Of a DNA stretch of 64,000 nt, positions 1 to 53,047 are shown piece after piece. Source of the DNA: a bacterium (GTDB lineage: Bacteria; UBA8248); assembly GCA_963692865.2 (NCBI GenBank), contig OY843592.1:2912001-2976000 (forward strand), in the 5' to 3' direction. The notes under the pieces are model-generated. The model did no database searches, had not been told where the DNA came from, and was given only the letters and a program-made list of their open reading frames with translations. Position 1 is the first letter of the stretch; the number at the start of each line of letters is the position of its first letter. The translations under genes were made by a program, and so were the position numbers.

Positions 1-685
<685 letters not shown>

Positions 686-986
686 TCACTGCTCCCTTTA
701 AGTTTCCTCATGCGAAAAATACGTCGCCTGAAATACGAACGAATCAGAACGTCAGACTTGTTATCGGATAAAATCCGTCGAACAGCCCCCGGACGAATTC
801 GCGGGCAAAAAAGTTCATCGCGCCTTCCAGCGAACTTCACCGCCCTCTCCATATCACGTCCCCCGCTCCGACGCCAGTCCGGGGGGAGAAGATTTCTTCA
901 ACTCCCCGAAGCCTCGAAATCCGGCTGGAATTTCGGGGCCGGTTCTGTTAGGGTGGGGTTGATTTTCAGGCGGCGCAAAGCCGCCC

Positions 987-1102
987 GGAATAAGTGAAAA
1001 TTTGGATAAAATTGGATAAATTCACGATGTTTTTCGATAAATTCGGCGAGACTTGAAACATCGGGAATGTTCTCATGTAACTCGTTCAAAATCAATCAAT
1101 TA
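987..1102 (-). repeat. Phased GAATTTAT repeat array (987-1044) plus IHF-consensus site (1090-1102); copy A of an inverted pair
   Basis: Minus strand GAATTTAT-N13-GAATTTAT-CC-AATTTTAT-CC-AAATTTTCACTTATTCC; 45/58 ungapped identity to 13582-13639; AATCAATCAATTA at 1090-1102 fits WATCAANNNNTTR. Confidence 0.6.
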
Positions 1103-1127
1103 TCCTCCCCCCGACGCGTGGTTGCCC

Positions 1128-1961: not shown

Positions 1962-1964
1962 GCG

Positions 1965-2864: not shown

Positions 2865-2926
2865 GTTTATCTTTATTCTTTGAAGCATTTTGGGCGAGAG
2901 AAGCGTAACTTCGACAAAAACAAAAA

Positions 2927-3655: not shown

Positions 3656-3657
3656 GT

Positions 3658-5460: not shown

Positions 5461-5745
5461 GATTAGAAGAAATCTCTCTGGGAAGGCGAATAGTGCAAAT
5501 GCCGGAATCGAGTGAGGCCAGTTGAAAAGCTCATGGCCGTTTCTCGATTCCCAAGCACCTGAAAAAAAGCAATCCTCAACAAACCTGCTAAATTCCCCTG
5601 TTATCGAGCGAACACGCTATATCAAACTTGTTCAACCTCGGTCAAATTGATTGCTCCCGGAAATACACGATGCTAGCATATACAAAGTGCGGTGTTTCGG
5701 ACGTTCATGCGTATTTCGGACCCAACGATTAGGGTACACTTGGCT

Positions 5746-7155
5746 ATGAGTTGCCGCAGTCTACATGTTTCTACCCACCTATTCTTATTGTTGTCCTGCT
5801 TACTATGCGCCTCACCAGTATCTGCGGCCATGTTTCACCCATTCGGTAGTCATCTCATCATTGATGCGGCCAAGAAATTACAACCTTCCGTTGTACATAT
5901 TCGTGTAAAACCAAAAGACACAGGAGGGAATCCGCTACTCAACCTCTTCGGCAGAGGACGTCAAAAAGACAACCCTCCAAAATTTGATCAGGGGAATGTG
6001 CCCTTTAGCGAGCACTACAACGTGGGATCAGGAATCATTGTCTCACAAAAAGGTCATATCTTAACCAATCACCACGTTATAAAGAACGCGCAAGAAATTA
6101 TGGTCAAACTCCATGAAGGAGAGGAATTTGCAGCCCGTTTGCTGGGTGTGGACGATAAAACAGATCTTGCATTGCTAAAAATAAAACCGACTCAAAAACT
6201 TCAAGAAGCATCTCTCGGAGATTCCGATAAAATAGATGTCGGACAGTGGGTTATAGCGATTGGCAGCCCGTTTGGCTTGGCGAATTCCGTATCGGTGGGA
6301 ATAATCAGCGCAAAAGGTCGGGATTTGAAAGAAGGTCCTTATGATGAGTATCTTCAAACCGACGCGTCGATCAACCCTGGCAACTCCGGTGGCCCACTCG
6401 CAAATACGGAAGGGGTCGTCATCGGGGTCAACACAGCGATATTTTCCAGTGGGTCACGCGCTTGGAGTTTGGGTATCGGTTTCGCTATTCCGATTAACCA
6501 AGCCAAAGCCGTTATTGATTCCCTTCGCCATACAGGCTATCCGGTACGGGGTCGTCTGGGTGCGGCCATATCAGCAGTCCCCCGGCAAGAGGGGAAGAAT
6601 CTGGGCTTAGCCCGCTTCGAGGGCGCCAAGCTCACGCAAGTTACTCGCGGGGGTCCCGCTCATCGTGCCGGCTTGCGCCGAGGAGACGTCGTTGTTGAAT
6701 TCGACGGCAAATCTGTCAGCACATGGCAGAGTCTTCCCCGCATAGTGGCCCGCACACAACCAAATTCCCTTGTGTTGATAAAATATTATCGAGAAAAACG
6801 TCTTGAGAGCGTCTACATACGCATAGGAAGCCAGCCCGAAGCGCCGCAATCACGACAGATGACAAACCATACTTTCATGGGAATGAAAGTAGAGATGCTT
6901 ACCCCGCATCTCGCCCAGCGTTTTGGGTTGATCTATGAGAAAAATAAATTGGTGGTTTCCTTGATTCTGAGAGGCGGAATCGCTGAACTCAGTGGAATCA
7001 GACCCGGCGATGAAATCCAAGAGGTAAACCACAAACCCGTAAACACTATAGAAGAGTTCCGATCCCTGATTGAGGAATCCCGCCTTGACGGTTCAGTACT
7101 CCTGTTCTTGAAAAGAAAAGAAACAAATCTTTTCGCTGCTCTTAAGACCAAGTAA
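5746..7155 (+). CDS. HtrA/DegQ periplasmic serine protease with two PDZ domains
   Basis: Signal-like N-terminus, TNHHV, TDLALLK, INPGNSGGPL, two PDZ-like regions; start uncertain (5692-5746). Confidence 0.92.
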   Translation: MSCRSLHVSTHLFLLLSCLLCASPVSAAMFHPFGSHLIIDAAKKLQPSVVHIRVKPKDTGGNPLLNLFGRGRQKDNPPKFDQGNVPFSEHYNVGSGIIVSQKGHILTNHHVIKNAQEIMVKLHEGEEFAARLLGVDDKTDLALLKIKPTQKLQEASLGDSDKIDVGQWVIAIGSPFGLANSVSVGIISAKGRDLKEGPYDEYLQTDASINPGNSGGPLANTEGVVIGVNTAIFSSGSRAWSLGIGFAIPINQAKAVIDSLRHTGYPVRGRLGAAISAVPRQEGKNLGLARFEGAKLTQVTRGGPAHRAGLRRGDVVVEFDGKSVSTWQSLPRIVARTQPNSLVLIKYYREKRLESVYIRIGSQPEAPQSRQMTNHTFMGMKVEMLTPHLAQRFGLIYEKNKLVVSLILRGGIAELSGIRPGDEIQEVNHKPVNTIEEFRSLIEESRLDGSVLLFLKRKETNLFAALKTK

Positions 7156-7248
7156 GCACTTCGCGACAACCTTGAAATGATGGATCAAAACCATCATCAT
7201 CCCAAGATTCATTTCTCCTTTTACCGAGGTTGAAGGAGACTTCAAAGA

Positions 7249-8391
7249 TTACACTCCCAACCATCGTTCATACTGTTGCAAGGCGTAACGGTCCGTCATT
7301 CCGGCGACATAATCACAAACCATTCGATGTCGTCCATCCGTTTTTTCCAGTTTGCGTACATGTTCCGGGATTTTATGTGGCTCGACGATGTACATGTGAA
7401 ATAATCCATTCAACGTTTTTCGAGCGCTTTTCTCTAATTTCATGACACGTTCGTTCTTATACATCCGCGCCATCAAGAAACGTTTGAGTTCGATGTTCTT
7501 CTCGTTCATCTCTTCATCGAAAACAACCAAATCATGCCCATTTTTTCTGACATCTAAAATATCCCGGATATTCCGAGTCATAAGGCGCTCGCATGTGGAT
7601 GTGATGATATCTTGAACTTGTGAGTTGATAATTCGGCGAATGGTGTCGTGCTTACTCTCTCGTCGGGAAGATTTGGGAAAAGATTTTTTTGAGTTTCCAT
7701 AGTGTTCACGCCAAAGGCGCGTATCCTGCAAATCTTCTAGATCGAATAGTCGTGATGACAAGCCATCGTCCAAATCGTGATTGTTGTATGCAATCTCATC
7801 CGCCACGTCTACCACCTGAGCTTCAAGGCTGGGAGAGACCCTATTCGTCAGACCCGGAGGCATCGGGCCTTCGTAGCGATGAAGGTATTTAATGATTCCT
7901 TCGCGTGTTTCCCATGTCAGGTTCAAACCCGGGAACGATGGGTAGCGCTTTTCTAAAACTTCGACGACCCGCAGGGCTTGCAAATTATGCTCAAACCCGC
8001 CGTGATCTTGCATCAGTTCATCTAAAACTTTCTCTCCGGCATGACCAAAAGGCGGATGACCCAAATCGTGCGCAAGGGCAACGGCCTCGGCAAGTTCTTC
8101 ATTCAAGCTTAGCGCACGCGCGATGGAGCGAGCGATTTGGCTTACCTCTATTGTGTGTGTCAAACGTGTCCGGTAATGATCCCCTTCATGATTCACAAAA
8201 ACCTGGGTCTTGTATTCAAGCCTCCTAAACGCCTGTGTATGGATAATCCGGTCCCGATCACGCTGAAAAGCCGTCCTCATGTCGTGTTCAGGTTCCGGGT
8301 GCCTCCGTCCGAGACTATCGGCGCTATGCGCGGCATAAGGGGCCAACAGGGACTTCTCTCTCTCCTCAATAGAAACTCGAGTGTTGTTCAT
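7249..8391 (-). CDS. dgt: dGTP triphosphohydrolase-like HD protein
   Basis: RTAFQRDRDRIIH, KTQVF, RTRLTHTIEV, HDLGHPPFGHAGE, CDYVAGMTD. Confidence 0.93.
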   Translation of the reverse strand: MNNTRVSIEEREKSLLAPYAAHSADSLGRRHPEPEHDMRTAFQRDRDRIIHTQAFRRLEYKTQVFVNHEGDHYRTRLTHTIEVSQIARSIARALSLNEELAEAVALAHDLGHPPFGHAGEKVLDELMQDHGGFEHNLQALRVVEVLEKRYPSFPGLNLTWETREGIIKYLHRYEGPMPPGLTNRVSPSLEAQVVDVADEIAYNNHDLDDGLSSRLFDLEDLQDTRLWREHYGNSKKSFPKSSRRESKHDTIRRIINSQVQDIITSTCERLMTRNIRDILDVRKNGHDLVVFDEEMNEKNIELKRFLMARMYKNERVMKLEKSARKTLNGLFHMYIVEPHKIPEHVRKLEKTDGRHRMVCDYVAGMTDRYALQQYERWLGV

Positions 8392-8412
8392 ATACTTACC
8401 AACTCTCAAAAA

Positions 8413-9348
8413 TCAGTCTGTTTCACAAACAGGCGGGATACTCGCGCGCCATGCGGCGAATAAGTAAGTCGTTGCCAGAGAAGCCCATGGATGCCACCTA
8501 TCAGCTTGCCTGCGCGCCGCTTCCTCGTCCACACGCTCTTCTCCGAAACAATAACGCGCCACAACTTTCTGTACTCCCAGATCACCGCCGGGAAATACCT
8601 CCACGCGGCCGAGCGCCCGAAACAACATTTGCTCGGCTGTCCAACGACCCACACCCCTTATCTCGGTCAAACGAGCCACCGCTTCATCTATAGGGAGAAT
8701 ACGCAGTTCGCTCTCTTCCAATCGACCCTCGAGAGCAGCGCGCGCCACGGCAATCACATATTCGGCCTTACGTTCCGAAAATTGCATCGCGCGAAAGGTG
8801 GATACGCGCGCTCTGGCCAAACGCTCCCGGCGCGGAAAAGCGTAATGCGTCTGTCCATCGATGCGCAATTTCCTCCCCCATCGCTTCACCATACGCCCCC
8901 GTATCGCGCCGGCGAACGTTAAATTCACCTGTTGCGCCGTAATCGCCGTAACAAGAGCCTCGAATACACTCAGGTATCGTATTGGTTTGAGCCCTTTGAA
9001 TTTTTTCGCAATCGGAGCCAAATTCATATCGTCTCTCGCCATCCTGTAAAATGGTCTCAAATCAAGATCAAAAGCCAAAATGTGCCTGATCGCTTCTAAA
9101 CCGGCATTTTGGGCCAATTTCGTCATCCGCCCTTCAGTGGTGATTCGAAACCGAATCGCGCCCCGGCCTTCGCCTTCATTTTCAGCTTCCAATAAGACCA
9201 ATTCACCATTCCCGTCTTCTACAACCCTGCGGTACACCCCGTCTGCGTAGGAGTTGACGAACTCCTCTCTGGAAACGCGGAAACGCAGCAAACTCTCGTG
9301 AAACAAAAAAGGCTCGGGGGGATGCAAGATTTTGGTTACAGATCCCAT
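8413..9348 (-). CDS. alkA: DNA-3-methyladenine glycosylase II (AlkA family)
   Basis: FEALVTAITAQQV, HhH motif IRGVGRWTAE, PGGDLGV, W-x-P-W C-terminus. Confidence 0.85.
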   Translation of the reverse strand: MGSVTKILHPPEPFLFHESLLRFRVSREEFVNSYADGVYRRVVEDGNGELVLLEAENEGEGRGAIRFRITTEGRMTKLAQNAGLEAIRHILAFDLDLRPFYRMARDDMNLAPIAKKFKGLKPIRYLSVFEALVTAITAQQVNLTFAGAIRGRMVKRWGRKLRIDGQTHYAFPRRERLARARVSTFRAMQFSERKAEYVIAVARAALEGRLEESELRILPIDEAVARLTEIRGVGRWTAEQMLFRALGRVEVFPGGDLGVQKVVARYCFGEERVDEEAARRQADRWHPWASLATTYLFAAWRASIPPVCETD

Positions 9349-9349
9349 A

Positions 9350-10123
9350 CTATTCCACCATCCGTCTACTCACCAAAACACAGGCGACAGCCAGGAACAA
9401 GAACGTAAAACCAAGTAGAAAAGAAAAATGCCAGATGAAATTCTCAACATGCCCATAAATAAACAAGCCGCGCGAGATTCTCACCGCATGCGTGAGCGGG
9501 AGAGCGTCGGATAAGCGTTCCACCCAAAGCGGAAGACCTTTGATCGGAAACAAAGTGCCCGCGAAGAAAAACATGGGCATGACGATGGCGGAAAAATAAA
9601 AATTGAAAAACGAAAAACTATGAGCCAACGACGTCGCAATCAGCCCCAAGGCTGCGAACATCACCGCTTCGATAAACAGAATCGGGAGAATCGCCACTGC
9701 CCACAACGATCCTACCAGGCCGAACAAACTCAAAACTACCAACATCAATGTCGAGCCAATCAATGCGCGGCTGGCGCACCAGAGAAGGTCCCCCAGCACG
9801 ATATCGCCCACCGTGAGCGGAGCCATCAACATGGATTCATACACGTTTTGAATTCTCATTCTCGAATAAGCCCCGTATGTGGACTCATACGTGGCGTTCC
9901 ACATGGCGACGGAAACCATCAACCCGGGGCCTATGAATTGCGCATATGAGATGCCGTCCAGACTCGGCACCAAGCGGCCGAGACCATAACCAAACGCCAC
10001 CAACCACAAAATATGTTCACCCAGATTGCCTGCCCATTCCGCCAGATAGAAAGAGCGATAGTACACCAGATGGCGAACCCAGACGCGAAAGGCGCGATGG
10101 CTCGGAGCCTGGGGGAAAAACAT
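9350..10123 (-). CDS. ABC-2 type exporter permease (NodJ-like)
   Basis: Six hydrophobic segments, YAQFIGPGL, PMFFFAGTLFP, LPLTHAV; ATG overlaps upstream TGA (TGATG). Confidence 0.85.
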   Translation of the reverse strand: MFFPQAPSHRAFRVWVRHLVYYRSFYLAEWAGNLGEHILWLVAFGYGLGRLVPSLDGISYAQFIGPGLMVSVAMWNATYESTYGAYSRMRIQNVYESMLMAPLTVGDIVLGDLLWCASRALIGSTLMLVVLSLFGLVGSLWAVAILPILFIEAVMFAALGLIATSLAHSFSFFNFYFSAIVMPMFFFAGTLFPIKGLPLWVERLSDALPLTHAVRISRGLFIYGHVENFIWHFSFLLGFTFLFLAVACVLVSRRMVE

Positions 10124-40729: not shown

Positions 40730-41310
40730 AGGGATTGTTGAAAGACCCTGCCTGCAGAACCCTGAAGAAGATAGAAATTGCCGGTTCGCTCACTGCCTTG
40801 AATCGGGCGCTTTTCCCTCACCCCGAGCAGTAGCCTCCCGACTCGCCTCATCCTGAGTAGCGGCGAAGCCGCGTATCGAAGGTCAATCGCAACCAATGCG
40901 GGAGCGATTGCCTCTCGCCCGGCGCGAAGCGCTCGACTCCCCTCGTCCTTCGATACAAACGCTCCTTCATCGGGGCCGTTGAAAAAGCCTGTTCCGGGGT
41001 CGGGCGGACACACAGGTCCGCCCCTGCGTTTCGTTTCGCAGAGGTTGGCAGGTCAGACATATATGTCTGGTATATCATGCGACCCGTATTGTGAAGGCGA
41101 AAAGGCAGGGCCGCATGATATGCGGCCCCTACGGCGGGATACCGACCGGCCCGCAAGGGGTTTTTCAACAACCCCTTCTCAGTCGCGTTTGACCTTCGGC
41201 GGCTACTCAGGGTGAGGAGGGGTGGTTGCGCGCCAAGGCGGCAAACGCGTCGTCAATGCCAAGCGATGAAAGAGAAAATACCGCCGTCATTCCGGCATCA
41301 ATTCCGACCC
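40730..41310. repeat. Repeat nest
   Basis: CCTCATCCTGAGTAGCGGCGAAGCCGCGTATCGAAGG (~40846-40882) and inverted partial copy at ~41200-41218; TIR-like end at 40731; partial GTCATTCCGGC at ~41286. Confidence 0.7.
40972..41175. mobile_element. MITE (204 bp) carrying a REP doublet
   Basis: GGGGCCGTTGAAAAA...TTTTTCAACAACCCC; internal 41048-41132 closely matches 14512-14594. Confidence 0.7.
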
Positions 41311-41355
41311 ATGAGGAAGGGATGGTTATTTTGAAAACCGCTCTTTTTCGGAAGT

Positions 41356-41955
41356 CTAGCAAGCCGCTTCCGGCGGCGGCAACATGGCTTCCACCTGTCC
41401 GACGATGGATTGCGGAAAACTCCGATCGGGGGAGACGCGCGCCAACACCCTGAGTCCGAGAAACAGACCGAACAAAGATTTCGCCGTTTGGTCCGGAACA
41501 ACTCGGGGGCATATCTCCCCGCAAGCCTGCCCCCGCTTGATGGAAGCGTGAAAAAACTCCGTCATGCCGGCGAACGCGCCGGCCACGAACGAAGCCACCT
41601 CTTCATCATGCGCCCCGAGCTCGAGGGCGACGTTGACTTCGAAGCAGCCCTCGCTCGACTCGTTGTCCACAGCCTTCGAGGCGACCGCTTTGAATACAGA
41701 GATCACCGCTCTGCGCGGCGAAGAATCCTTTTCGAGTTCCTGTATCGGAACTACGCGGTAAAACCGGTCGTAATGGTAAAGCGCCCGCAAGAACATCTGA
41801 CGCTTGCCGCCGAACGCATGGTACAGGCTGCCTCGCAAGAGACCCGTCGCCTTCTCCAGATCCCGAATCGACGTCGCCGAATAGCCATAGCGCCAAAACT
41901 GATCCATTGTTTTCGTCAAAATTTCGTCCATATCGAACTTTGGCGCTTTCCCCAT
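41356..41955 (-). CDS. TetR-family transcriptional regulator (ComR/NemR-like)
   Basis: FWRYGYSATSIRDL...GSLYHAFGGK, GCFEVN. Confidence 0.9.
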   Translation of the reverse strand: MGKAPKFDMDEILTKTMDQFWRYGYSATSIRDLEKATGLLRGSLYHAFGGKRQMFLRALYHYDRFYRVVPIQELEKDSSPRRAVISVFKAVASKAVDNESSEGCFEVNVALELGAHDEEVASFVAGAFAGMTEFFHASIKRGQACGEICPRVVPDQTAKSLFGLFLGLRVLARVSPDRSFPQSIVGQVEAMLPPPEAAC

Positions 41956-42270
41956 GGGTCCTCTCTTCGTTTTTCCCCGTTTTTACGCCGAATCACGGAA
42001 TTCCTGCTAACGCCATGTCAAAGCTGTAGCGGCTCAAGCCAGCCCACCAATTTGATGGTTAGCACACGGGCAAGCCCGTTTCAAGAAAAATCGTTCCCCG
42101 GCGGATTATTCCCCGGGAAGCGCTCGTGCGCCTGCGTTTAGAGTCTTTTTTGCCCGGTGGCGCGGGATAAATCCATTCATTTGCATTGCCTCGTGTTCGG
42201 CCCCGTGCTAGATTCTCGTTTCCGGGGAAGCCGACCTTTCTTTTCTGCCGAGACGCGGGAGGAACAACCC

Positions 42271-42663
42271 ATGGCGAAGCAACGAATCGACTCCGACAAG
42301 GTGAAGCCTGTCGCCGCGTATTCCACGGGCTGGAAGGTATCGAACGGACATCTCATCATGCTGGCGGGCCAGGTGGCGGTCGCCGTGGACGGCAACACCA
42401 TCGGCGGCGACGACATCCGGGCACAGACCCGGCAGGTGTACGAGAACATCAAGGCCGCGCTGGAGGCGGCGGGCGCCGGGATGGCGGACATCATCCGCCT
42501 CACGGTCTATATCACCGATCCTGCGAATGTCCCGGGATGTATGGAGGTGCGGCAGACCTACTTCGGCGAACCCTACCCTGCGAGCACGCTCCTGATCGTG
42601 AGCGGCCTGGCGAAACCGGAGTGGCTCATCGAGATCGACGCGATCGCCTTCGTGGAAGACTAG
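42271..42663 (+). CDS. RidA/YjgF family protein
   Basis: AAYS, LAGQVA, QTRQVYENI, PASTL, LIEIDAIA; ATG after GGAGG. Confidence 0.9.
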   Translation: MAKQRIDSDKVKPVAAYSTGWKVSNGHLIMLAGQVAVAVDGNTIGGDDIRAQTRQVYENIKAALEAAGAGMADIIRLTVYITDPANVPGCMEVRQTYFGEPYPASTLLIVSGLAKPEWLIEIDAIAFVED

Positions 42664-42667
42664 AAAC

Positions 42668-43522
42668 ATGAGCAGCCGCAGGGCCATCGCCGATACGCTC
42701 GTGCTCGTCAAGGGAGGCGGAGACCTCGCCACAGGCGTCGCGCACCGTCTGTACCGCGCGGGGTTTCCACTCGTTATCACCGAAATTGAAAACCCCACCA
42801 TGGTGAGGCGCACCGTCTCCTTCGCCGAATGCCTCTACGCCGATGGATGGCAAGTAGAGGGCGTAACCTCCGCCCGGGCGGACGGCGAAACTCCCTCGGA
42901 AAAAGCAATGAGCGCGCGCGCCATCCTGGAGGCGGGTTCGATTCCGGTGATGGTGGACCCGCGCGCAGACGCAATCGCCCACGTCCGGCCCGCCGTCGTG
43001 GTCGATGCGATTCTGGCGAAGCGGAACCTCGGCACGCGCATCGATGACGCGGAGGTCGTGGTCGGCCTGGGGCCGGGCTTCACGGCGGGCGTGGATTGCC
43101 ACGCCGTCATCGAGACCTCGCGGGGGCATGACCTGGGACGGGTGATTCTGGAGGGCGCGGCCAAACCGAACACGGGCGTTCCGGGGCCCATCGGCGGCTA
43201 CACCACCGAGCGGCTCTTGCGCGCTCCCAAGGCCGGCGTCTTCACCTCCATCGCCCGAATCGGCGACACGGTGCGCGCGGGAGAAGCCGTCGCCCGCGTG
43301 GACGGCGAGGAGGTGCGCTCCGCCATCGACGGCGTTTTGCGCGGGCTTCTGAGAGACGGCATCGAGGTGAGCGACGGCTTCAAGGTGGGCGACGTCGACC
43401 CGAGGGCCGAGCCCTCCCATTGCCACACGATATCGGATAAATCGCGCGCCATCGGCGGCGGCGCGCTCGAGGCCATCATGATGTTCCTGTTCGGCGTTTC
43501 AGCCATGGAGTATGCGAATTGA
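42668..43522 (+). CDS. yqeB: Selenium-dependent molybdenum hydroxylase system protein YqeB
   Basis: KGGGDLATGVA, VRRTVSF, DAILAKRNLGT, GLGPGFTAG, ETSRGHDLG, KVGDVDPR, ISDKSRAIGG. Confidence 0.92.
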   Translation: MSSRRAIADTLVLVKGGGDLATGVAHRLYRAGFPLVITEIENPTMVRRTVSFAECLYADGWQVEGVTSARADGETPSEKAMSARAILEAGSIPVMVDPRADAIAHVRPAVVVDAILAKRNLGTRIDDAEVVVGLGPGFTAGVDCHAVIETSRGHDLGRVILEGAAKPNTGVPGPIGGYTTERLLRAPKAGVFTSIARIGDTVRAGEAVARVDGEEVRSAIDGVLRGLLRDGIEVSDGFKVGDVDPRAEPSHCHTISDKSRAIGGGALEAIMMFLFGVSAMEYAN

Positions 43523-44403
43523 GTACCGAGATATTGAGTGAAACGGTGGAAAACGGCGTCTACAACATCGGACGCAGCGAAATCCCCATCAACGAGACCA
43601 ACGGCAACTCCTTCGTTCCCCCTGCGCAGTTCTATCTGGCGGCGGGCGACGCGCTCGAGCGCATCGCGTGGGCGGTGAGCCAAAACCTGCCCGTCCTCCT
43701 CGTGGGGGAGACCGGCGTCGGCAAGACCCTCTCGGTGCGCCACCTCGCCCACATGACGAACAACGGCTTCCGGCGCGTGAACCTAAACGGCATGACCACG
43801 GTCGATGAGTTCGTGGGCAAGCTGATGATCAACGAACAGGGCACCTACTGGGTGAACGGCATCCTGGTCGACGCCATGGAATCGGGCGACTGGCTGCTTA
43901 TCGACGAGATCAACGCATGTCTGCCGGAAATCGCCTTCTGCCTGCACAGCCTGCTCGACGACGACCGCATGATCGTCTTGTCCGAATACGACGGCCGCAT
44001 CGTCAAGCCCCACCCGAATTTCAGGCTCTTCGCCAGCATGAACCCGCACGAGGACCGCAGATACGGCGGCACCAAGCCCCTGAACGAGGCGCTTCTGGAT
44101 CGCTTCCCGGTCACCGTGAAGATGGACTACCTGCCTTTCGAGGCGGAAGTCGAGGTCATCATGCAGCAGAGCGGGAACCGCGACGAGGAGCTCGTCAAGC
44201 GCATGGTGCGCGTGGGCCACGACGTGCGCGAGGCCATGCAGAACGAGAAGGTGTTCTGCACGTTCAGCACCCGGCGCCTCATCGACTGGGCGCGCATGGC
44301 GGCGCAGTTCGACCCCATGGAAGCCGCCGTCTCGACGATTTTCAGCAAGGTCAACTCTTTCGACGCCAAGGTGCTCGAGGACATCGTAGACAACCACTTC
44401 TAG
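43519..44403 (+). CDS. MoxR-clade AAA+ ATPase (CbbQ/NirQ/NorQ/CobS type)
   Basis: GETGVGKT, LLIDEINA, HPNFRLFASMNP, LNEALLDRF, FSTRRLI C-terminal motif; start overlaps the yqeB stop. Confidence 0.9.
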   Translation: MSTEILSETVENGVYNIGRSEIPINETNGNSFVPPAQFYLAAGDALERIAWAVSQNLPVLLVGETGVGKTLSVRHLAHMTNNGFRRVNLNGMTTVDEFVGKLMINEQGTYWVNGILVDAMESGDWLLIDEINACLPEIAFCLHSLLDDDRMIVLSEYDGRIVKPHPNFRLFASMNPHEDRRYGGTKPLNEALLDRFPVTVKMDYLPFEAEVEVIMQQSGNRDEELVKRMVRVGHDVREAMQNEKVFCTFSTRRLIDWARMAAQFDPMEAAVSTIFSKVNSFDAKVLEDIVDNHF

Positions 44404-44417
44404 CCGGGAGATGAGGC

Positions 44418-46189
44418 ATGGAGCGCCGACGCGCCCGTCTCGAAGCGCTCGCGCAGGTGACCGCGCACGATTACGACCTCGCCCTGAACTTCGGCCCCAA
44501 GGCGAAGAACGGCGAGGACGCCATTCACGTCGAGGACCCCGAACAGACCCTGGCGCGCCTGGGCGGCGGACTCAACGACGAGCACGTCCTCAGATTCCAG
44601 AAAGGCATGACGCTCATCGAAGTGGCCCACAAAATCCACGGCACGTTCCGCTGGGCGGGGCGCGCCGCGCTCGCGAACCGCGAGAGGCCGGGTCTTTTCC
44701 ACATCTGGCACACGCTCGAGGACGCGCGGTGCGAAAACCGCCTCGCCGAATCGCTGCCCGGCACCAGGAAGAATTTCCGCGCCTTCATTCTGCCTGCCAT
44801 CGAGGCGGCCGAACGCAACCAGATGAGCGGGCAACTCCCCTTGTTTCTCCAGATCCAGTGGGGAATCTACCTCGCCGGGATCGGGCAGACGCCCGGCGTC
44901 CCCTCCTCGCGGCCCGGAGACTTGCCGGCGGCCTGGTTCGACACCGCCGTCGTCCAGATATTCCACAGGCTCACCCCGCTGGTAGACCGCGCCTGCGCCG
45001 CCGATGACCCCAAGACCGCCTTCGATTGCGCGAACGAGATCTACGACGCCATCCAGCGCTATCTCACCGAAGAGCAACTGGCCCGGATGAGCGAGGATCA
45101 GGACCTCTCGGATATCCCCGAGGAAATTTTAGAGAAAATCGAGAGCCAGAACCTCGAAGGCGACGACGACGAAGCGATGGAGATGCTTCACCCCGAAGCG
45201 GCGGAGGAAATCGACGAAGAGGACGTGGGCGAGCAGGTCGAACTGAGTCCCGAGGAACTCGCGGCGCTCGGGCACTGGGCCGCCCCCTGGTTCGAGTTAG
45301 AGGGCAACAAGAAGGAAATCCACCCCACCGCCGAGCATCCCGACGAGCGCACGGTCGTACTGCCGCCGGAGGGCAAGGCCGAGGAATACGCGGCGGTCAT
45401 CGACAATGCGGGCAGCCAAATCAAGGTGCTGGTGTGGAAGCTCATGCAGATCATCCAGGAGAGAACCTACACCCGCTACAGCGGCTCGCACCGCTCGGGC
45501 AAGCTGAACCTCCCCAAGCTGTGGAAACAGCGGCTGGGGAAATTCCATCTCTTCCACCGCAGGGAAGAGCCCGACAACTCGACGTGTGCTTCACGCTGCT
45601 CGTGGACGAGAGCGGCAGCATGAACCGCGAGTCGAAATACATGGCCGCCCGGGAGGCGACCATCTTCTTCGCCGAAGCGCTCGACCGCATCGACGTGCCC
45701 TTCGAGGTCATCGGCTATTCCACCGAGAGCTCGGAAGCCGCCATGGCGGCGGCCCTGGGCCACATCCCGGCGTTCAAGTTCCGCCACATCCGGCACTCGC
45801 CGCTGCAACACCGCATCTACAAGGGCTTTGAGGATCAGTTCGCCCAGGTGAAGCACAGGCTCGTCAACATCTATCCGCGCTTCAACAACTGGGACGAGGA
45901 GCACCTGCTCTTCGCCTACCGCAGGCTCATCCAGCGGCCCGAGGAGGAGAAGATCATCATCATCACCTCCGACGGCCAGCCCAACGGGGACGCGACCCAC
46001 CTCGTGAACACGGTGAACCGGCTGCAGAAACTCGGCGTCCGCGTCATCGGCGTCGGCGTGGTGGACCCATTCGTGGAGCAGATCTACCCCAACCACATCG
46101 TCGTGCAGGACCTCTCCCAGCTTTCCACCGAACTCGTGAACATCCTGAGGCGCGAACTGCTCGGCGGGTTGGAGAGCCGCGCTTGGTAG
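44418..46189 (+). CDS. CobT/NorD-like vWA-domain protein, split by a -1 frameshift near 45576
   Basis: Frame 1: HTLEDARCE, acidic linker, SGKLN. Frame -1: LDVCFTLLVDESGSM (MIDAS), IIIITSDGQPN. One extra base gives ~590 aa. Confidence 0.8.
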
Positions 46190-47010
46190 CGCGAGAGAGC
46201 GTCGTCCGCTCCCTCGGGGTCGAACCGGGCCAGAGCGTCGCGGCTGTCGGCGGGGGCGGAAAAACGAGCCTGCTGACGGCCATCGCCAGGCAGTTTCACG
46301 CCCAAAACGGAATGCCTGCGATTCTCACGACGACTACGAAGATTTTCGCGCCCCTCCCCGAAGAAGGAATCCATCTCGCTTTGGGCGACGCCGAGACGCT
46401 CGCAGAGAACCTCCGCCCCTACATGGGCGCCTGCGGCATATCCTGGCTCGCCAGAAAGCGCGAGGGCGAAGCCCCAATTCCGGGCCGGGAGAGCGAGCGG
46501 CGCATGAAGCTGGGCGGTTTTACGCCTTCGGAAATTGCCCGCTTCACGCCGGGTGACGCCCTGACGCTCATCGAGGCGGACGGCGCGAGAAGACTGCCCA
46601 TCAAGGCGCCCGGCCCCGGTGAGCCCGTCCTGCCCGAAGGCCTGGACGCCGTGCTGGGCGTCATCGGGCTGGACGCGCTGGGCGCGCCCTTGAGCGAGGC
46701 GCACGTCTTCCGCCCCGATGCGCTCTCACGCATATGCGATCTGGGAGCCGGAGAAGAGATTACGGCGGAGACGGTCGGGAAGTTGTGCGCGCATCCTGAT
46801 GGTCTTTTTCATAAAGCGGAGGCCGGCGCCCGCAAGTGGATCGTCATCAACAAGGCGGATCTGGAAACCTCGCTGGAAAAATTGCGCGAAATCGCATATA
46901 TTGTATGGGAGTTTGCCGGAAAACCTCATGGCCCGGCGGACGGCATCCTCTTTACGTCTTGTACGAACAACGAATGTGAAGTATTCATACGTATCACACA
47001 AGATGCGTAA
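46183..47010 (+). CDS. yqeC: Selenium cofactor biosynthesis protein YqeC
   Basis: VGGGGKTS, TTTTKIF, IEADGARRLPIKAP, EPVLP, VIGLDALG, INKAD. Confidence 0.9.
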   Translation: MVARESVVRSLGVEPGQSVAAVGGGGKTSLLTAIARQFHAQNGMPAILTTTTKIFAPLPEEGIHLALGDAETLAENLRPYMGACGISWLARKREGEAPIPGRESERRMKLGGFTPSEIARFTPGDALTLIEADGARRLPIKAPGPGEPVLPEGLDAVLGVIGLDALGAPLSEAHVFRPDALSRICDLGAGEEITAETVGKLCAHPDGLFHKAEAGARKWIVINKADLETSLEKLREIAYIVWEFAGKPHGPADGILFTSCTNNECEVFIRITQDA

Positions 47011-47041
47011 CGACTGCAATTCCAAGCAGGCGGAGCAAGGA

Positions 47042-48187
47042 ATGAGCAAGGACGTATTCAGGGAAATGGCGAAACTCAAGGAAGACGGCCAGGGCGGCGC
47101 GCTCGCCACCGTCGTGGCCCGCAAGGGGTCCGCGCCCATGAGCGGCGATGCGAAGATGCTCGTGCGCGAGGACGGCAGCACGGAGGGCACGGTCGGCGGC
47201 GGCTGTCTCGAAGCCGAAGTCTGGGAAACCGCCATGAGCGTCCTGGAGACGGGCGCACCCGAAAAGCTGCGCTTCGACCTCACCCAGCAGGAAGCCGAAG
47301 ACAGCGGGCACATCTGCGGCGGCGTGGTGGAGATACTCGTGGAGCCGTTCCAGGCGTTCCAGGAAGAGTTGCTCGGCGAGATCAACCGCATCAGAACCGA
47401 GGGCGGCAGCGCCGCGCTGGCGACCATCGTTCAGCCGGGCGATATCGACGCGCCGAATGCGGAGAACAGGAAGATGCTCTTCCGGCGCGACGGCAGCGCC
47501 GTGGGCGATATTCCCACCTACTCGACGGAGATATGGGCGGAGAGCACCCAGATCATCCGAAACGGCAGCCCCACGCTCCTGCAGTTCAACAGGGACGCCG
47601 CGCGCGCCGGAGAAAAGCGCTCGACGCTCACCGAGGCCACCGAAATTTTCGTCGAACCCATATCCGGCCAGCCCCTCGTCTATATTTTCGGCGGCGGTCA
47701 CGTCTCCTTCTGCGTCGCGCAGGCGGCCTACCTCGCGGGATTCCGCGTTTCGGTCGTCGAGGACAGACCCTCGTTCGCCAACAAGGAGCGCTTCCCGATG
47801 GCGGAATCGTTCCACGTGGGGGAATTCCCTGAAATTTTCGAGAAAATCCCGGTCGATGAGTCCGACTACCTGGCCATCATCACCCGAGGCCACGCGAACG
47901 ACGAGGTCGTCCTCGAGTGGGCGATGAAGTCCGACGCGCGCTACATCGGGATGATTGGCTCCAAAAGCAAGGTGCTGCTCACCTATCGCCACCTCCAGGA
48001 CAAGGGGTATGACCGCGGCGAACTCATCGAGCGCGTCCATGCGCCCATAGGCCTCGACATCGGCGCCGATACGCCGGGCGAGATCGGGGTGGCCATCGTC
48101 GCCGAACTCATCCGGCACCGCCGCAAAGGCGAGGCGCAGGGCGAAGGCGCGGGCAGCAAGAGGGTGCAACTCAGAAGAAAATCCTAA
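47042..48187 (+). CDS. xdhC: XdhC/CoxF-family Moco-insertion chaperone
   Basis: GTVGGGCLE, CGG, FGGGHVS, YIGMIGSKSK, APIGLDIGADTPGEIGVAI. Confidence 0.9.
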   Translation: MSKDVFREMAKLKEDGQGGALATVVARKGSAPMSGDAKMLVREDGSTEGTVGGGCLEAEVWETAMSVLETGAPEKLRFDLTQQEAEDSGHICGGVVEILVEPFQAFQEELLGEINRIRTEGGSAALATIVQPGDIDAPNAENRKMLFRRDGSAVGDIPTYSTEIWAESTQIIRNGSPTLLQFNRDAARAGEKRSTLTEATEIFVEPISGQPLVYIFGGGHVSFCVAQAAYLAGFRVSVVEDRPSFANKERFPMAESFHVGEFPEIFEKIPVDESDYLAIITRGHANDEVVLEWAMKSDARYIGMIGSKSKVLLTYRHLQDKGYDRGELIERVHAPIGLDIGADTPGEIGVAIVAELIRHRRKGEAQGEGAGSKRVQLRRKS

Positions 48188-48267
48188 ATCTTCACGCCGC
48201 AGCCGGCCCGTCCGAGGAGGGCCGCATTCCTTAAAACCCGGACCCATGGAAGGTTCTTGCAGGAACC

Positions 48268-49023
48268 ATGGGTTATCTCCGCAGGCTCATCGGCGCAGCG
48301 ACGGATTTCCTCATTCCCCCGAAATGCCTCTTGTGTTCGGCTTCCATGAATATCGGCGAACCGCATGCGATATGCGCGCCATGCACGGAAGCCTTCGAGC
48401 GCTTCGAACCGCCCTGGTGCCCGAGATGCGGCAATCCCTTCCATTCCATGACCGCCCTCGCCCACTCCCCGGCGCACGTCTGCGCGGATTGCCTCGAAAG
48501 CGGACATCACTACGACATGGCCCGCGCCATCGGCGCGTATGAGGGCCTGCTGAGGGACTCGGTCCACCTCTTCAAGTTCCAGGGTTTCACGAAGCTCGCC
48601 CGCGAGTTCGCGCCCCTCCTCGCCGGGCTTGCGGCGGAGGAGTTCGGTATCGAAGATGACGCGCAGAACGTGGTCGTGACGCACGTGCCCATCGCCCCCG
48701 CCCGCTGGCGGACGAGAGGCTTCGATCAGGCGAAGCTGCTCGCCCTCATGACGGCGGAATGCCTGGAGCGGCCCCACGCGGATTTTATCGAGCGCGCGAA
48801 GGAGACCCGCTCGCAGACGGGCCTCACCGCGCGGGAGCGGCGCCGGAACATGCGCGGCGTCTTCGGTGTTCGGAACAAGGGAGTGCGCGAAAAACTCGAA
48901 GCGGCCACGTGCATCCTCGTTGACGACGTCGTCACGACCGGCTCGACCGCCTCGGCCTGCGCCCGCGAACTCAAAAAAGCAGGCGCCGAAGCGGTGCACC
49001 TGCTCACGATATGCAGGTCTTGA
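48268..49023 (+). CDS. comF: ComF family protein (double zinc ribbon + PRTase)
   Basis: Four CxxC pairs, RGFDQA, LVDDVVTTGST. Confidence 0.9.
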   Translation: MGYLRRLIGAATDFLIPPKCLLCSASMNIGEPHAICAPCTEAFERFEPPWCPRCGNPFHSMTALAHSPAHVCADCLESGHHYDMARAIGAYEGLLRDSVHLFKFQGFTKLAREFAPLLAGLAAEEFGIEDDAQNVVVTHVPIAPARWRTRGFDQAKLLALMTAECLERPHADFIERAKETRSQTGLTARERRRNMRGVFGVRNKGVREKLEAATCILVDDVVTTGSTASACARELKKAGAEAVHLLTICRS

Positions 49024-49148
49024 AGGCGAGAGTTTTCGTAGCGCGACCTGTCCCTACGGATTAAATCTTCAAAAAACCACGAACAAAATAACGAAACCAA
49101 GCAAATATGACGGAAGGCATAACAACGATTTGAATGACAACAAAATAG

Positions 49149-49195
49149 TTGACAACATATTTGATGTATGATTAAATTCAACAGATATGTTGAAT
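49149..49195 (+). promoter_or_regulatory. Candidate promoter with overlapping palindromic operator
   Basis: TTGACA (49149)-18 nt-TAAATT; perfect inverted repeat ATTCAACA-gata-TGTTGAAT at 49176-49195; AT-rich leader. Confidence 0.5.
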
Positions 49196-49223
49196 CACAA
49201 AGAAATTTACGAAAGGAATTCGT

Positions 49224-50456
49224 ATGAAATCATCCACTGGCCGCTGGGTGAGCGGCGACGACTTTTTTGATCGTGAACCCGAATTACAGATACTGGAAGC
49301 ACAAGTCCAAGACCGCAATCACGTATTGTTGACCGGACAGCGGCGCATGGGAAAAACCAGCATTGCCCGAGAACTCGGGAGGTGGCTAGAAGCCAAAGAC
49401 TGGGTTTTCCTCTTCGCAGACGTAGAGGGGGCAGCTTGTCCGGAGGACGTTATCGCCCAAATCGCCCAAGCTGCGCATCCGGTTCGCGCGCTCTCCTCGC
49501 GTTTCACCGCCTGGTCTGAGCGCTTCTTTAGCGACAACATCGAGGAAATCAACGCGCTCGATTTTGGCGTGAAGTTCCGCGCCGGGCTGGATGCAGGCAG
49601 CTGGCGACGTCACGGAGAGCGACTGTTTCGAGATTGCGCCGAGTATGACAAGCCTGTTTTGCTCGTCATCGACGAATTGCCGATCTTCCTGAAACGGATG
49701 CTCCACAATGACGGCGATGCACGGCGGGTCGACGAGTTCATGAGTTGGCTGCGCGGCGTGCTTCAGGCGCTGGGAGAAGATTCTCCAGTCCTCATGTTAT
49801 CAGGAAGCATCGGGCTGGAGCCTCTTATGCGCAGACTCGGCCTGCCCGACCGCATCAACCATCTGTACCCCTTTCGCCTGGGTCCGTGGAGCCGCGACAC
49901 CTCCATCGAGTGTTTCGAACATCTCTCGGAGAGTTACGAAATATCCGTCGAGGCCGGGGTGGCGGATGCAGTATACGAAACCTTGGGAGTCGGCATACCT
50001 CACCATGTGCAGTCTTTCTTTGCGCGTTTGCGGGATTTCGCCACGATGCAGGAGCGGGAGCGGATAACGGTTGAAGACGTCGGCGAAGTCTATCGCAACG
50101 CGCTTCTGGGGGCTTCGGGACAAAATGATCTCGTACACTACGAAACACGCCTGAAAGAAGGCATCGAGGATGAAAACTACTCCATCGCCATGGAGATTCT
50201 GGCCGAGGCGGCGACTCTGGAGGTATTCACGCCCGCTGCCAGAAAGTGTCTCGAACGCTTGTATTCCACGGTGGTAGACGATGCGCCCAGTCGCATTGCG
50301 GACATTATCGAAGTCCTCGCGTACGACGGGTATCTGGAATCCGGCGATGGCGGCTACCGTTTCCCGTCGCGCTTGCTCAAGGATTGGTGGTCGGCGCGCT
50401 TCCGCGATCATCACACGCCCCTCGAAAAACGCCGACCCGAGGACAAATCACAATAG
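49224..50456 (+). CDS. AAA/STAND-type ATPase with C-terminal winged helix
   Basis: FFDRE, GQRRMGKT, LLVIDELP, SGSIGL, GIPHHVQ, DGYL...YRFPSRLLKDWW. Confidence 0.82.
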   Translation: MKSSTGRWVSGDDFFDREPELQILEAQVQDRNHVLLTGQRRMGKTSIARELGRWLEAKDWVFLFADVEGAACPEDVIAQIAQAAHPVRALSSRFTAWSERFFSDNIEEINALDFGVKFRAGLDAGSWRRHGERLFRDCAEYDKPVLLVIDELPIFLKRMLHNDGDARRVDEFMSWLRGVLQALGEDSPVLMLSGSIGLEPLMRRLGLPDRINHLYPFRLGPWSRDTSIECFEHLSESYEISVEAGVADAVYETLGVGIPHHVQSFFARLRDFATMQERERITVEDVGEVYRNALLGASGQNDLVHYETRLKEGIEDENYSIAMEILAEAATLEVFTPAARKCLERLYSTVVDDAPSRIADIIEVLAYDGYLESGDGGYRFPSRLLKDWWSARFRDHHTPLEKRRPEDKSQ

Positions 50457-50464
50457 AGGACCCA

Positions 50465-53047
50465 ATGAACGAAACGTCCAACAGGCAAATCCGCAAGTTC
50501 AACCCGGGCGCATACCAGTCGGATGAGGAGTTGATGGAGCAATTCGTCGTCCGAAACCGCGAACTGGAAATCGTACTCGAAGTGCTCCGCGCGAACATCG
50601 ACTCCCCATCGTGTCAGCACGTTCTGGCCGTCGCCCCGCGCGGTCGAGGGAAAACCATGCTTCTGGCCCGCGCCGCAGCGGAAATCCGCGCAAACGACGA
50701 ACTCGCCCGACGCCTGTTGCCCGTCCGTTTCATGGAAGAGAGCCAAGAGATTTTCCATATGGCCGACTTCTGGCTGGAGGCGCTGTTTCACCTGGCCAGA
50801 GAGAGCGCCCCTCACGATCCCGAACTCGCGCAAGAACTGCGAGCTACGCACGCCGACCTGGCCGCTCACTGGGGAGATCGGTCGCTTGAAGACCGCGCCC
50901 GCGCCGCCGTTCTGCAGGCGGCGGATCGACTGGACAGAAAACTCGTGCTGATGGTCGAGAACCTGCAAGCTCTGTGCGACAGCGTGGATGCGGATTTCGG
51001 CTGGAAGCTGCGCGGGGCGTTGCAGTCCGAACCCAAGATAATGCTGCTCGCCTCCGCCACCAGCCGCTTCGAGAGTCTGGACGATGCGCAGCAACCCTTC
51101 TTCGAGTTGTTTCGTATCATCTGCCTGGAGCCGCTGACCACCGAAGAGTGCCGTCTCCTGTGGCAGGCGGTGAGTGGGGACGAAGTGAGCGGGCGCGAGA
51201 TCAGGCCGCTTCAGATACTGACCGGAGGCAGCCCCCGCCTCCTCGTCATCGTCGCCGGATTCGCGCGCCATCACTCCCTTCGCCAGTTGATGGAAGAGTT
51301 GGTGACGCTGATAGACGAGCACACCGAGTATTTCCGAAGCCATCTGGAAGTCCTGGCCAAAACTGAACGCCGCGTCTATCTCGCGGTAATCGACCTTTGG
51401 CGGCCGTCGAGCACCTCCGAAATCGCGGCGCGCGCGCGCATGGACGTTCGGACCGTATCGACCATGCTCGGGCGGCTTGTCGAGCGGGGTGCGGTGATCG
51501 TGGAAGGAAAAGGCAGGAAGCGCCATTACGCCGCCGCCGAACGTCTCTACAGCATTTACTACAAGCTGCGGCGCGAAAGAGACGAAGCGGCCGTCGTGGA
51601 GAATCTGATCCGTTTCATGGTGGTTTTCTACAACGAAGAAGAACGGGCGGAGATGTTCCCCCGGCTGATTCGGGAGGCGACGGAATCAGCCGCCATTCGG
51701 GAGGGTCTCGACAGGGCGGCCGCCGGACTCCCGGAATTCGAGAGCCTGTATACCGGCATCATGCAGAGAAGCCGGTGGGAGCATCTAGTGGAGGAGATTG
51801 CAACGGCGTTCAAAGGGAGGGACTTCCAGAAAGTCATCGAGACCATAGGCCGCGCGTTTGCCGTCGATGGCGCAAACCGGTCTCAAGCGTCGGAGTCCAT
51901 CATTGCCTGGCTATTGCTTCGGAAGGCGTATTCACATCAAGAACTAGGCGATTTCGAAGCGGCGATAACAACCTATGAAGAGATAGCCGAACGCTTTGCC
52001 GACAGCGACGAACCTGAAATCCAACAGCGCGTCGCTACGGCGTTGGTAGACAAGGGAGATGTGCTGGAAGAACTCGGCGACTTCAAGGCGGCGATTGCAA
52101 CATACAGTGAGTTAGTCAATCGTTTTGGTGGCAGCAACACACTGGATATCCAATGGTGGGTCGCTACAGCTTTGGTTTGCAATGGAAATGCACTGGAAGA
52201 ACTCGGGGATTTCGAAGCGGCGATTATCACCTACGAGGAAGTTGTCAAGCGTTTTTCAAACAGCAACGTACCTGAAATCCAGTGGTGGGTCGCTGCAGCG
52301 TTAATCAATCAGGGGGATGTACAAAGCGAACTTGGCAATTGCGAAGTAGCAATAGCGACTTACAATGAAGTAGTAAAGCGCTTTGGTAACATCAACTCGC
52401 CGGAGATTCAGGAGCGGGTCGCCGTTGCGTTGGTCTTCAAGGGAATTGTGCGAGAAAAACTCGGCGATTTCGAAAGGGCGATTGCGGCCTATAAAGAAGT
52501 GGTCGAACGTTTTATCGACAACAGTGCGCCGGAATTGCAATTGTGGATAGCGAGGGCATTAGCCGATATGAGTATTGCACAAACTCAAATCGGTCGCGCA
52601 GATGAAGCACTGCACACTTGCGAGGAACTCGAACGAAGACTCGGAACATTCCTGACCGGCGAAGAAGAAACCGAGTTTCGGTGGCGAGTGATGTACACGC
52701 GAGTCTTGGCTCTACTAGGAAAGGGAGAACACCGAGCCGCCATGGACGCGTTTCGCTCCGCGTATGTCGAGTTCCTTCCTCGCAACGAAATCCCGATTCA
52801 CGAAATGCTGCGATTAGTGCCTAACTTGATCGCAGCGGGCGCATCGACCCATAAGCTCGTCGAAATCCTCACGAGCGATGAGACGAAATCCGGCGCGTTG
52901 GCACCCCTGATCGTCGCCCTGCGTCAACATGCTGGCGAGGCTGTTCGTGCGCCGGCGGAAGTGCTCGAAGTGGCTGCGGATATCCTTGAACGTATCGAGG
53001 AACAATCAGAGAAAGGTGTTTCCGGGGCTTCCCGACAACCTGAATAA
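50465..53047 (+). CDS. STAND-like ATPase-wHTH-TPR repeat protein (860 aa)
   Basis: APRGRGKT, degenerate Walker B VLMVENL, TGGSPR, wHTH SEIAARARM...LGRLVERG, five to six 43-aa TPR-like repeats. Confidence 0.8.
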   Translation: MNETSNRQIRKFNPGAYQSDEELMEQFVVRNRELEIVLEVLRANIDSPSCQHVLAVAPRGRGKTMLLARAAAEIRANDELARRLLPVRFMEESQEIFHMADFWLEALFHLARESAPHDPELAQELRATHADLAAHWGDRSLEDRARAAVLQAADRLDRKLVLMVENLQALCDSVDADFGWKLRGALQSEPKIMLLASATSRFESLDDAQQPFFELFRIICLEPLTTEECRLLWQAVSGDEVSGREIRPLQILTGGSPRLLVIVAGFARHHSLRQLMEELVTLIDEHTEYFRSHLEVLAKTERRVYLAVIDLWRPSSTSEIAARARMDVRTVSTMLGRLVERGAVIVEGKGRKRHYAAAERLYSIYYKLRRERDEAAVVENLIRFMVVFYNEEERAEMFPRLIREATESAAIREGLDRAAAGLPEFESLYTGIMQRSRWEHLVEEIATAFKGRDFQKVIETIGRAFAVDGANRSQASESIIAWLLLRKAYSHQELGDFEAAITTYEEIAERFADSDEPEIQQRVATALVDKGDVLEELGDFKAAIATYSELVNRFGGSNTLDIQWWVATALVCNGNALEELGDFEAAIITYEEVVKRFSNSNVPEIQWWVAAALINQGDVQSELGNCEVAIATYNEVVKRFGNINSPEIQERVAVALVFKGIVREKLGDFERAIAAYKEVVERFIDNSAPELQLWIARALADMSIAQTQIGRADEALHTCEELERRLGTFLTGEEETEFRWRVMYTRVLALLGKGEHRAAMDAFRSAYVEFLPRNEIPIHEMLRLVPNLIAAGASTHKLVEILTSDETKSGALAPLIVALRQHAGEAVRAPAEVLEVAADILERIEEQSEKGVSGASRQPE

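Follow-up and report, generated by a model that had tools for sequence, protein, structure and literature searches.

A MoxR-class AAA+ ATPase and its von Willebrand-type adaptor encoded between yqeB and yqeC: a candidate accessory factor pair for molybdenum hydroxylases

The window, as the whole stretch of DNA analysed here is called, comprises 64,000 nucleotides from a bacterium of the lineage UBA8248 (positions 2,912,001 to 2,976,000 of contig OY843592.1, assembly GCA_963692865.2). Between its positions 42271 and 48187, six genes on the plus strand run in one direction, namely ridA, yqeB, the gene of an AAA+ ATPase, the gene of an adaptor with a von Willebrand factor type A (vWA) domain and its metal ion-dependent adhesion site (MIDAS), yqeC and xdhC. 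The ATPase and adaptor in the middle of this operon are the subject of this work, and a role in the maturation of molybdenum (Mo) hydroxylases is the reading favoured below for them. The features of the locus are the following, with coordinates counted within the window:

42271..42663, plus strand: ridA, encoding a Rid-family (YjgF/RidA-like) protein of 130 amino acids (aa); Ribonuc_L-PSP, 95 bits
42668..43522, plus strand: yqeB, encoding a selenium-dependent Mo-cofactor accessory protein of 284 aa; TIGR03309, 363 bits, cut-off 220
43519..44403, plus strand: gene of the AAA+ ATPase (294 aa, midasin/CobS/NorQ/CbbQ class), TTG start; AAA_5, 100.5 bits, and CbbQ_C, 39.9 bits
44418..46189, plus strand: gene of the CobT/NorD-like vWA adaptor, about 590 aa (frame corrected); CobT_C, 67 bits
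45605..45619, plus strand: DESGS, the MIDAS motif within the vWA domain, read from the sequence; D, S and S invariant in the alignment
46183..47010, plus strand: yqeC, encoding a selenium cofactor biosynthesis protein of 275 aa, TTG start; TIGR03172, 157 bits, cut-off 73, and Pfam YqeC, 116 bits
47042..48187, plus strand: xdhC, encoding an XdhC-family Mo-cofactor insertion/maturation factor of 381 aa; XdhC_CoxI, 88.8 bits, and XdhC_C, 128.6 bits
41356..41955, minus strand: gene of a TetR-family regulator, divergent and upstream of the operon; TetR_N and TetR_C_13

A preliminary description of this DNA, made from its letters alone, had reported six coupled genes, and domain and family matches identify all of them at these positions on the plus strand. 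Both of the overlaps it had claimed are likewise seen: the stop codon of yqeB and the TTG with which the ATPase gene begins come together in TTGA at 43519-43522, and the TTG start of yqeC (46183) lies 7 nt within the 3' end of the adaptor gene, whose stop codon TAG occupies 46187-46189. The ridA product scores under the cut-off of the RidA subfamily (TIGR00004, 77.7 bits vs 106.25), and the xdhC product misses that of XdhC_rel_AOR (NF045664, 311 vs 350 bits). A ComF-like gene follows downstream of the operon. A scan for promoters and terminators from 41300 to 49300 gave nothing beyond chance, and the operon interior is without a plus-strand terminator-like site. The upstream TetR-family gene is kept in seven close relatives (L020-L022 and L024-L027, 67-77%) and is a possible regulator of the operon.

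There are 11 Mo-hydroxylase genes in the window genome (G000, 97.4% complete), vs a single copy each of yqeB, the XdhC gene and such a pair; the yqeB copy is the one in the operon, and the operon's xdhC is the sole XdhC_CoxI match. As had been noticed before, the window contains neither a Mo-hydroxylase gene nor selD: all 11 hydroxylase genes are elsewhere in the genome, and selD (335 bits, one in-frame TGA) is found at C1:65915-66877. Two further SelD-like or AIR-synthase-related matches (L013 and L014, at C1:1117392-1118126 and C1:247572-248357) reach 92 and 71 bits, which is under the selD cut-off. Their positions are some 3 kb upstream of Mo-hydroxylase genes, namely those at C1:1120953 and C1:251099 out of the 11, and the two may represent hydroxylase-linked SelD paralogues.

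In the deposited sequence the adaptor gene is divided between two frames (44418-45623 and 45026-46189), and one base is missing near 45575-45578, where a homopolymer AAA was read as AA. Contigs from the sequencing runs X1, X2 and X3, assembled independently from three samples of one study that may include the source sample, have one A more behind 45575 (depths 44, 28 and 56) and show no further difference from the window within 601 nt. At the position of the extra base, a related strain in X5 carries G, as the relatives do, and all 17 relatives aligned by blastn are one base longer at 45575-45578 with the vWA gene in frame. The extra A restores GAC AAA CTC and thereby a single open reading frame of about 590 aa, in which Lys-Leu-Asp leads into the MIDAS strand. 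Because the additional base is present in the contigs of X1-X3 and the relatives are in frame, the gene of the organism is intact and the frameshift is an assembly error; a pseudogene and a programmed frameshift are both ruled out on the same grounds. The concern raised in the preliminary description, that the vWA gene might be a true pseudogene in all relatives, is thus dispelled for the relatives and, by the reads, for the window organism itself. Artefacts may likewise underlie further apparent frameshifts of the assembly.

The ATPase qualifies as a MoxR-class AAA+ protein, with 100.5 bits for AAA_5 (cut-off 22) and 39.9 bits for CbbQ_C (cut-off 20.6). Among sequences of the PDB it matches midasin with 350 bits (summed over six AAA stretches), CobS with 97, NorQ with 82, CbbQ with 80 and the MoxR protein 2r44 with 45 bits. 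The motifs GETGVGKT, DEIN, DRF and STRR are invariant in 13 ATPase sequences, the nucleotide-binding and hydrolysis motifs being intact. The adaptor matches CobT in the PDB with 52 bits over residues 221-526; in 20 adaptor sequences the MIDAS residues D-x-S-x-S...T...D are invariant and the N-domain motif W-H-x-L-E-D-x-R-x-E-N is invariant or nearly so. An AlphaFold model of the orthologue at locus L022, whose adaptor is 96% identical, has a mean pLDDT (predicted local distance difference test) of 76. Its N domain is helical and its acidic linker disordered, and a vWA domain follows at the C terminus. The top fold matches of this vWA domain are the MIDAS domain of MDN1/Rea1 and the vWA domain of NorD in NorQD complexes, and the ESM Atlas gives, as a lead only, a resemblance of the N-terminal part to a cluster of CobT domains. 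In every listed orthologous locus with enough sequence, the ATPase gene adjoins the vWA gene.

None of the curated NCBIfam models reaches its cut-off on either protein. The ATPase scores 85.1 bits with the CobS equivalog TIGR01650 (cut-off 558.55) and the adaptor 55.4 bits with the CobT equivalog TIGR01651 (cut-off 759.05), while VWA_CoxE remains at 19 bits on the adaptor, under its cut-off of 26.4. Public labels on homologues, such as 'MoxR family ATPase', 'cobaltochelatase CobS' and 'midasin', are generic or wrong. By sequence, the two proteins fall into the midasin/CobS/NorQ and CobT/NorD class. The earlier assignment to a CbbQ/NorQ/CobS and CobT/NorD type as opposed to CoxD/CoxE thereby holds, given the family scores, the PDB and fold matches and the low identity to the genome's own CoxD/E-like proteins. 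Identity with CoxD/CoxE is ruled out by the VWA_CoxE score and by identities of 26% and 21% to these proteins. The latter are encoded in a cluster of coxM, coxS, a CoxD-like AAA gene and a CoxE-like vWA gene (VWA_CoxE 205 bits) at C1:2428553-2432238 on the minus strand (L076, 8553-12238), which has no Mo large-subunit gene directly alongside, the nearest MoCoBD_1 match being about 30 kb off.

Orthologues of the pair occur in two genomic contexts. Conservation of the ATPase is high, with 120 listed homologues at identities of 63-98%. At least 55 loci came from a scan with a single genome for each species; at least 29 of them, with identities of at least 64%, were counted as orthologous. A metagenome scan gave at least 58, of which at least 16 were so counted at identities of at least 53%. 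Contexts were assigned by tblastn with the window proteins and with the proteins of locus L044, which covered 45 orthologous loci among the matches listed. Mo-hydroxylase maturation or structural genes adjoin the pair in 44 of them, and the remaining one (L090) is on a short contig with no neighbour match. Listed homologues at or below 52% identity, from Omnitrophota, Planctomycetota and others, have no Mo genes nearby.

The first context, type 1, has the order yqeB-AAA-vWA of the window and accounts for 22 of the loci listed (20 genome loci together with L078 and L079). Of the 20 genome loci among these matches, 16 have ridA upstream; yqeC-xdhC is downstream in 14 of the 16 that have enough downstream sequence. 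The two exceptions, L038 and L048, lack yqeC-xdhC nearby, and in L038 genes resembling coxM/L/S are present 3.5 kb downstream. The second context, type 2, with the order coxM-coxS-split coxL-AAA-vWA, likewise accounts for 22 of the loci listed (9 from Chloroflexota genomes and 13 from metagenomes); a gene of the metallo-beta-lactamase fold lies 5' of coxM-coxS in all 8 listed genome loci with enough upstream sequence, and Pfam bears out the arrangement in L042 and L044. In L042 the FAD subunit (5260-7038, 592 aa) carries an N-terminal fusion to NAD_binding_2, a 6-phosphogluconate-dehydrogenase-like domain. The preliminary description had seen a threat to its proposal in orthologues occurring mostly apart from yqeB, yqeC and xdhC, and in that form the finding was not made: a neighbourhood of Mo-hydroxylase genes is general among the listed loci, while adjacency to yqeB and yqeC is missing in 22 of them.

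The maximum-likelihood tree, built from 37 ATPases, has type 2 on one side of a branch (support 81/100) and type 1 basal and unresolved, and the distant homologues, the CoxD-like protein and a MoxR protein are on very long branches. The root is the midpoint, and the tree does not settle the direction of evolution between the two types. The occurrences point to sponge-associated and marine bacteria of a few uncultured lineages as carriers.

Of the 51 species genomes from the phylum of the window, 47 have the ATPase; exactly these also have a full-length yqeB, located on one contig with the ATPase gene and less than 100 bp from it in every case. Two of the other four genomes (67% and 92% complete, in 460-490 contigs) have no ATPase match and only a fragment of yqeB, covering the first 137 or 91 of 256 model positions; the other two are without yqeB and ATPase and also without any Mo hydroxylase. 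In one member of the phylum, yqeB is present a second time, apart from the operon copy (G055:C125:5964-6746, 317 bits). The picture is different in a sample of 201 genomes from the Chloroflexota class, where yqeB is present in 120 (116 of them over cut-off) and the ATPase in 2. Thus 118 of the 120 yqeB-positive genomes of this sample are without the pair, and the pair is therefore an accessory and no core or general part of the selenium trait. Among genomes with the type-2 context, selD with an in-frame TGA is found in five of five, as is yqeB next to yqeC and away from the pair. The open frames with the yqeC match are 356-472 aa long in five of the type-2 Chloroflexota (G001-G005), vs 275 aa in the window, and their YqeC may be fused to another domain.

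The type-2 hydroxylase offers a candidate client. Both halves of its split large subunit match nicotinate dehydrogenase (NdhL/NdhM, PDB 3HRD) best and end to end, with 221 and 246 bits vs 162 and 167 for the next matches. In the available part of one source, nicotinate dehydrogenase is described as split in the same way (PMC10331938); the accessible portion of another counts nicotinic acid hydroxylase among the selenium-dependent Mo hydroxylases and cites a paper on the 'Mo-Se active site' (PMC11448449). By this homology the type-2 enzyme may be a selenium-dependent Mo hydroxylase. In the 201 Chloroflexota genomes, NdhM-like subunits of at least 75% identity occur only in the 2 that have the ATPase, and 15 other genomes have NdhM homologues at 46-63% and no pair. 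Because the closely similar subunits are confined to ATPase-positive genomes, this distribution suggests a client-specific partnership between the pair and the hydroxylase in type 2. A complex prediction for the vWA domain at L044 (residues 370-581) with the NdhL-like and NdhM-like subunits returned two scores of 0.00 (mark 0.32), a result that counts neither for nor against binding.

From the conserved motifs, the two contexts and the distribution, we infer that the ATPase and its adaptor probably form a two-part, ATP-driven remodeller that belongs mechanically with CobS/CobT, NorQ/NorD, CbbQ/CbbO and midasin and would act as an accessory factor in the maturation or reactivation of xanthine oxidase-family Mo hydroxylases among bacteria bearing selD, yqeB and yqeC. 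The ATPase would form a ring, onto which the adaptor would dock through its N-terminal part and linker, and the MIDAS site of the adaptor would grip an acidic residue of the client. A folded apo-hydroxylase large subunit is the most likely client, and a complex of XdhC, YqeB or YqeC with the cofactor the alternative one; ATP hydrolysis would loosen the client such that its buried Mo site is open to the cofactor or to the terminal sulfur or selenium ligand. A selenium-specific step is a narrower claim within this reading and is put forward tentatively. It is plausible because the pair is inserted between yqeB and yqeC, because yqeB-AAA-vWA forms the conserved core, because the type-2 enzyme resembles nicotinate dehydrogenase and because selD is present in the type-2 genomes tested. 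The preliminary description had proposed a remodeller for selenium installation, of which the connection to Mo hydroxylases stands with 44 of the 45 listed loci, while the step served may be selenium installation, sulfuration or cofactor insertion. Its further idea, that RidA may clear 2-aminoacrylate released on mobilisation of selenium or sulfur from (seleno)cysteine, is to be seen against a ridA that is present in only 16 of the 20 listed type-1 genome loci.

Several observations weigh against a remodeller tied to these hydroxylases and to selenium. Most yqeB-positive genomes of the Chloroflexota class sample manage without the pair, and an orthologue of the type-2 hydroxylase was not found in the window genome, where the best matches have 31-41% identity and are alike across paralogues, so the client either differs between the two contexts or is generic. 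Type-2 loci are not adjacent to yqeB/yqeC, and their link to selenium therefore depends on homology to one solved enzyme. In addition, yqeB occurs in 9 of 10 type-2 genomes (G257 has no match), which is only weakly above the base rate of 58-60% in the class (116-120 of 201), and the type-2 genomes are kin. Finally, the pair is present in two or three independent lineages only, for which reason the locus counts overstate the independence of the evidence.

Much of this would be accommodated if the pair were a general chaperone of Mo hydroxylases that assists cofactor insertion, sulfuration or subunit assembly without any link to selenium, its position between yqeB and yqeC reflecting a shared maturation operon. 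That would agree with a type-2 pair that adjoins structural genes and not yqeB/yqeC, with the rarity of the pair and the frequency of yqeB in the class, and with CoxD, which works in sulfuration and not in selenation. It would not account as readily for the precise place of the type-1 pair between yqeB and yqeC, where stop and start codons overlap, for the adjacency of yqeB and the ATPase gene in all 47 genomes of the phylum, or for the retention of yqeB-AAA-vWA as the most conserved core even where yqeC-xdhC is not adjacent (L038, L048); the nearest solved relative of the type-2 enzyme is moreover the selenium-containing nicotinate dehydrogenase, and selD accompanies the pair in all type-2 genomes tested. 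We regard a chaperone of this general kind as a serious possibility, though a rather unlikely one. Some other client or process, be it a different metal centre, a response to stress or a conflict system, with the Mo genes as neighbours by historical accident, appears improbable: MoxR-class pairs serve many unrelated clients, and listed homologues at or below 52% identity lie apart from Mo genes, but two distinct conserved neighbourhoods relate the orthologues to one enzyme family in 44 of the 45 listed loci, their codon overlaps suggest co-translation, and they form a tight group (63-98% identity) with long branches to the distant homologues. Least of all is the pair to be taken for CobS/CobT, the motor of the aerobic cobaltochelatase. 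CobS and CobT are its top curated families and its best PDB sequence matches after midasin, some homologues are publicly labelled 'cobaltochelatase CobS', and the ESM Atlas lead points to CobT domains; against this, the scores of 85 vs 558 and 55 vs 759 bits are far under the equivalog cut-offs, the window genome has no match to the CobN/Mg-chelatase H family (PF02514), and none of the 45 listed orthologous loci is in a cob context, 44 of them being beside Mo-hydroxylase genes. A cobaltochelatase is hence extremely improbable, and the clustering with CobST in cob contexts that the preliminary description had considered as a counter-finding did not emerge.

A remodeller of Mo hydroxylases would have its closest functional parallels among known pairs of AAA+ and vWA proteins. 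NorQ/NorD, whose role is iron insertion, likewise combines an AAA_5/CbbQ_C ATPase with a long adaptor that has a C-terminal MIDAS vWA domain, and NorD is among the top fold matches and NorQ among the PDB matches of the window pair; in contrast, the window pair has no neighbouring nor genes and is surrounded by ridA, yqeB, yqeC, xdhC, the TetR-family gene and the ComF-like gene, or by hydroxylase subunit genes in type 2. CobS/CobT provides the nearest curated families and the same adaptor architecture of N domain, acidic linker and vWA domain, but the window pair stays far under the equivalog cut-offs and is without CobN and a cob context. Midasin (Rea1/MDN1) is the best PDB match of the ATPase, with its six AAA domains, and the best fold match of the vWA domain, but is one giant eukaryotic protein of ribosome assembly and not two small bacterial proteins. 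CbbQ/CbbO shares the ATPase class and differs in client and context. It acts as a Rubisco activase, that is, as an ATP-driven remodeller that reopens the inhibited enzyme through a MIDAS contact, and it inspires a bolder version of the present reading, in which the pair is an in-place selenation machine or 'reactivase' that opens folded Mo hydroxylases for YqeB and YqeC to install or re-install the labile selenium ligand. We consider this version unlikely; if it were true, it would constitute a repair cycle for a metallocofactor similar to that of Rubisco activase, which would keep selenium-dependent hydroxylases active in oxygen-exposed habitats.

CoxD/CoxE resembles the window pair in that an AAA+ and a vWA protein are encoded with an XdhC-family protein (CoxF) and serve a Mo enzyme of the xanthine oxidase family, the client of the window pair being predicted, with a role that would be analogous to CoxD's. 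The two systems are not orthologous: identity to the CoxD-like and CoxE-like proteins of the window's own genome is 26% over 209 aa (28.5 bits) for the ATPase and 21% (38.5 bits) for the adaptor, respectively. As far as the accessible part of the CoxDEF paper goes, CoxE has 399 aa, vs about 590 aa and a CobT-like N domain in the window adaptor, the AAA+ protein CoxD is required to sulfurate the MoO3 site within the folded apo-CO dehydrogenase, and the cofactor of this enzyme is located about 17 Å beneath the surface (PMC4240915).

Pairs of AAA+ and vWA proteins that mature metalloenzymes are already known, and the clade of the window is distinct, tightly conserved and in a new context; its client class is probably new. 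We know of no mechanism for YqeB or YqeC. The route by which the labile selenium ligand reaches Mo hydroxylases is described as unknown in the available part of a recent genetic study (PMC11448449). A literature search found no description of the pair, most subscription journals and supplements being outside its coverage, and the CoxDEF paper (PMC4240915) was the only literature found that joins AAA+/VWA (MoxR) proteins with XdhC or with Mo-hydroxylase maturation. The terms MoxR, AAA and von Willebrand or VWA do not appear in the available portions of PMC5322559 and PMC11448449, nor do ATPase, AAA and von Willebrand in that of PMC2276186. With its position in the yqeB/yqeC operon and, elsewhere, beside a homologue of the one Mo-Se enzyme that has a known structure, the pair offers specific candidate factors, together with a defined client, to be used in reconstitution. 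Should the favoured reading be true, a second AAA+/vWA system, non-orthologous to CoxD/E, would have been recruited to the xanthine oxidase family, which would suggest that ATP-driven opening of the buried Mo site is needed in more than one branch of this family.

Beyond the operon, two neighbouring genes of STAND-like NTPases (one with AAA_16, the other of 933 aa with many TPR repeats) lie at 49224-53047 just 3' of the ComF-like gene and are seemingly unrelated to the operon. In RNA runs, 0.05-0.09 of the stretch is represented. The G+C content is 0.48-0.52 at positions 1-10000 vs about 0.63 in the remainder of the window, and this part may be foreign or otherwise distinct DNA.

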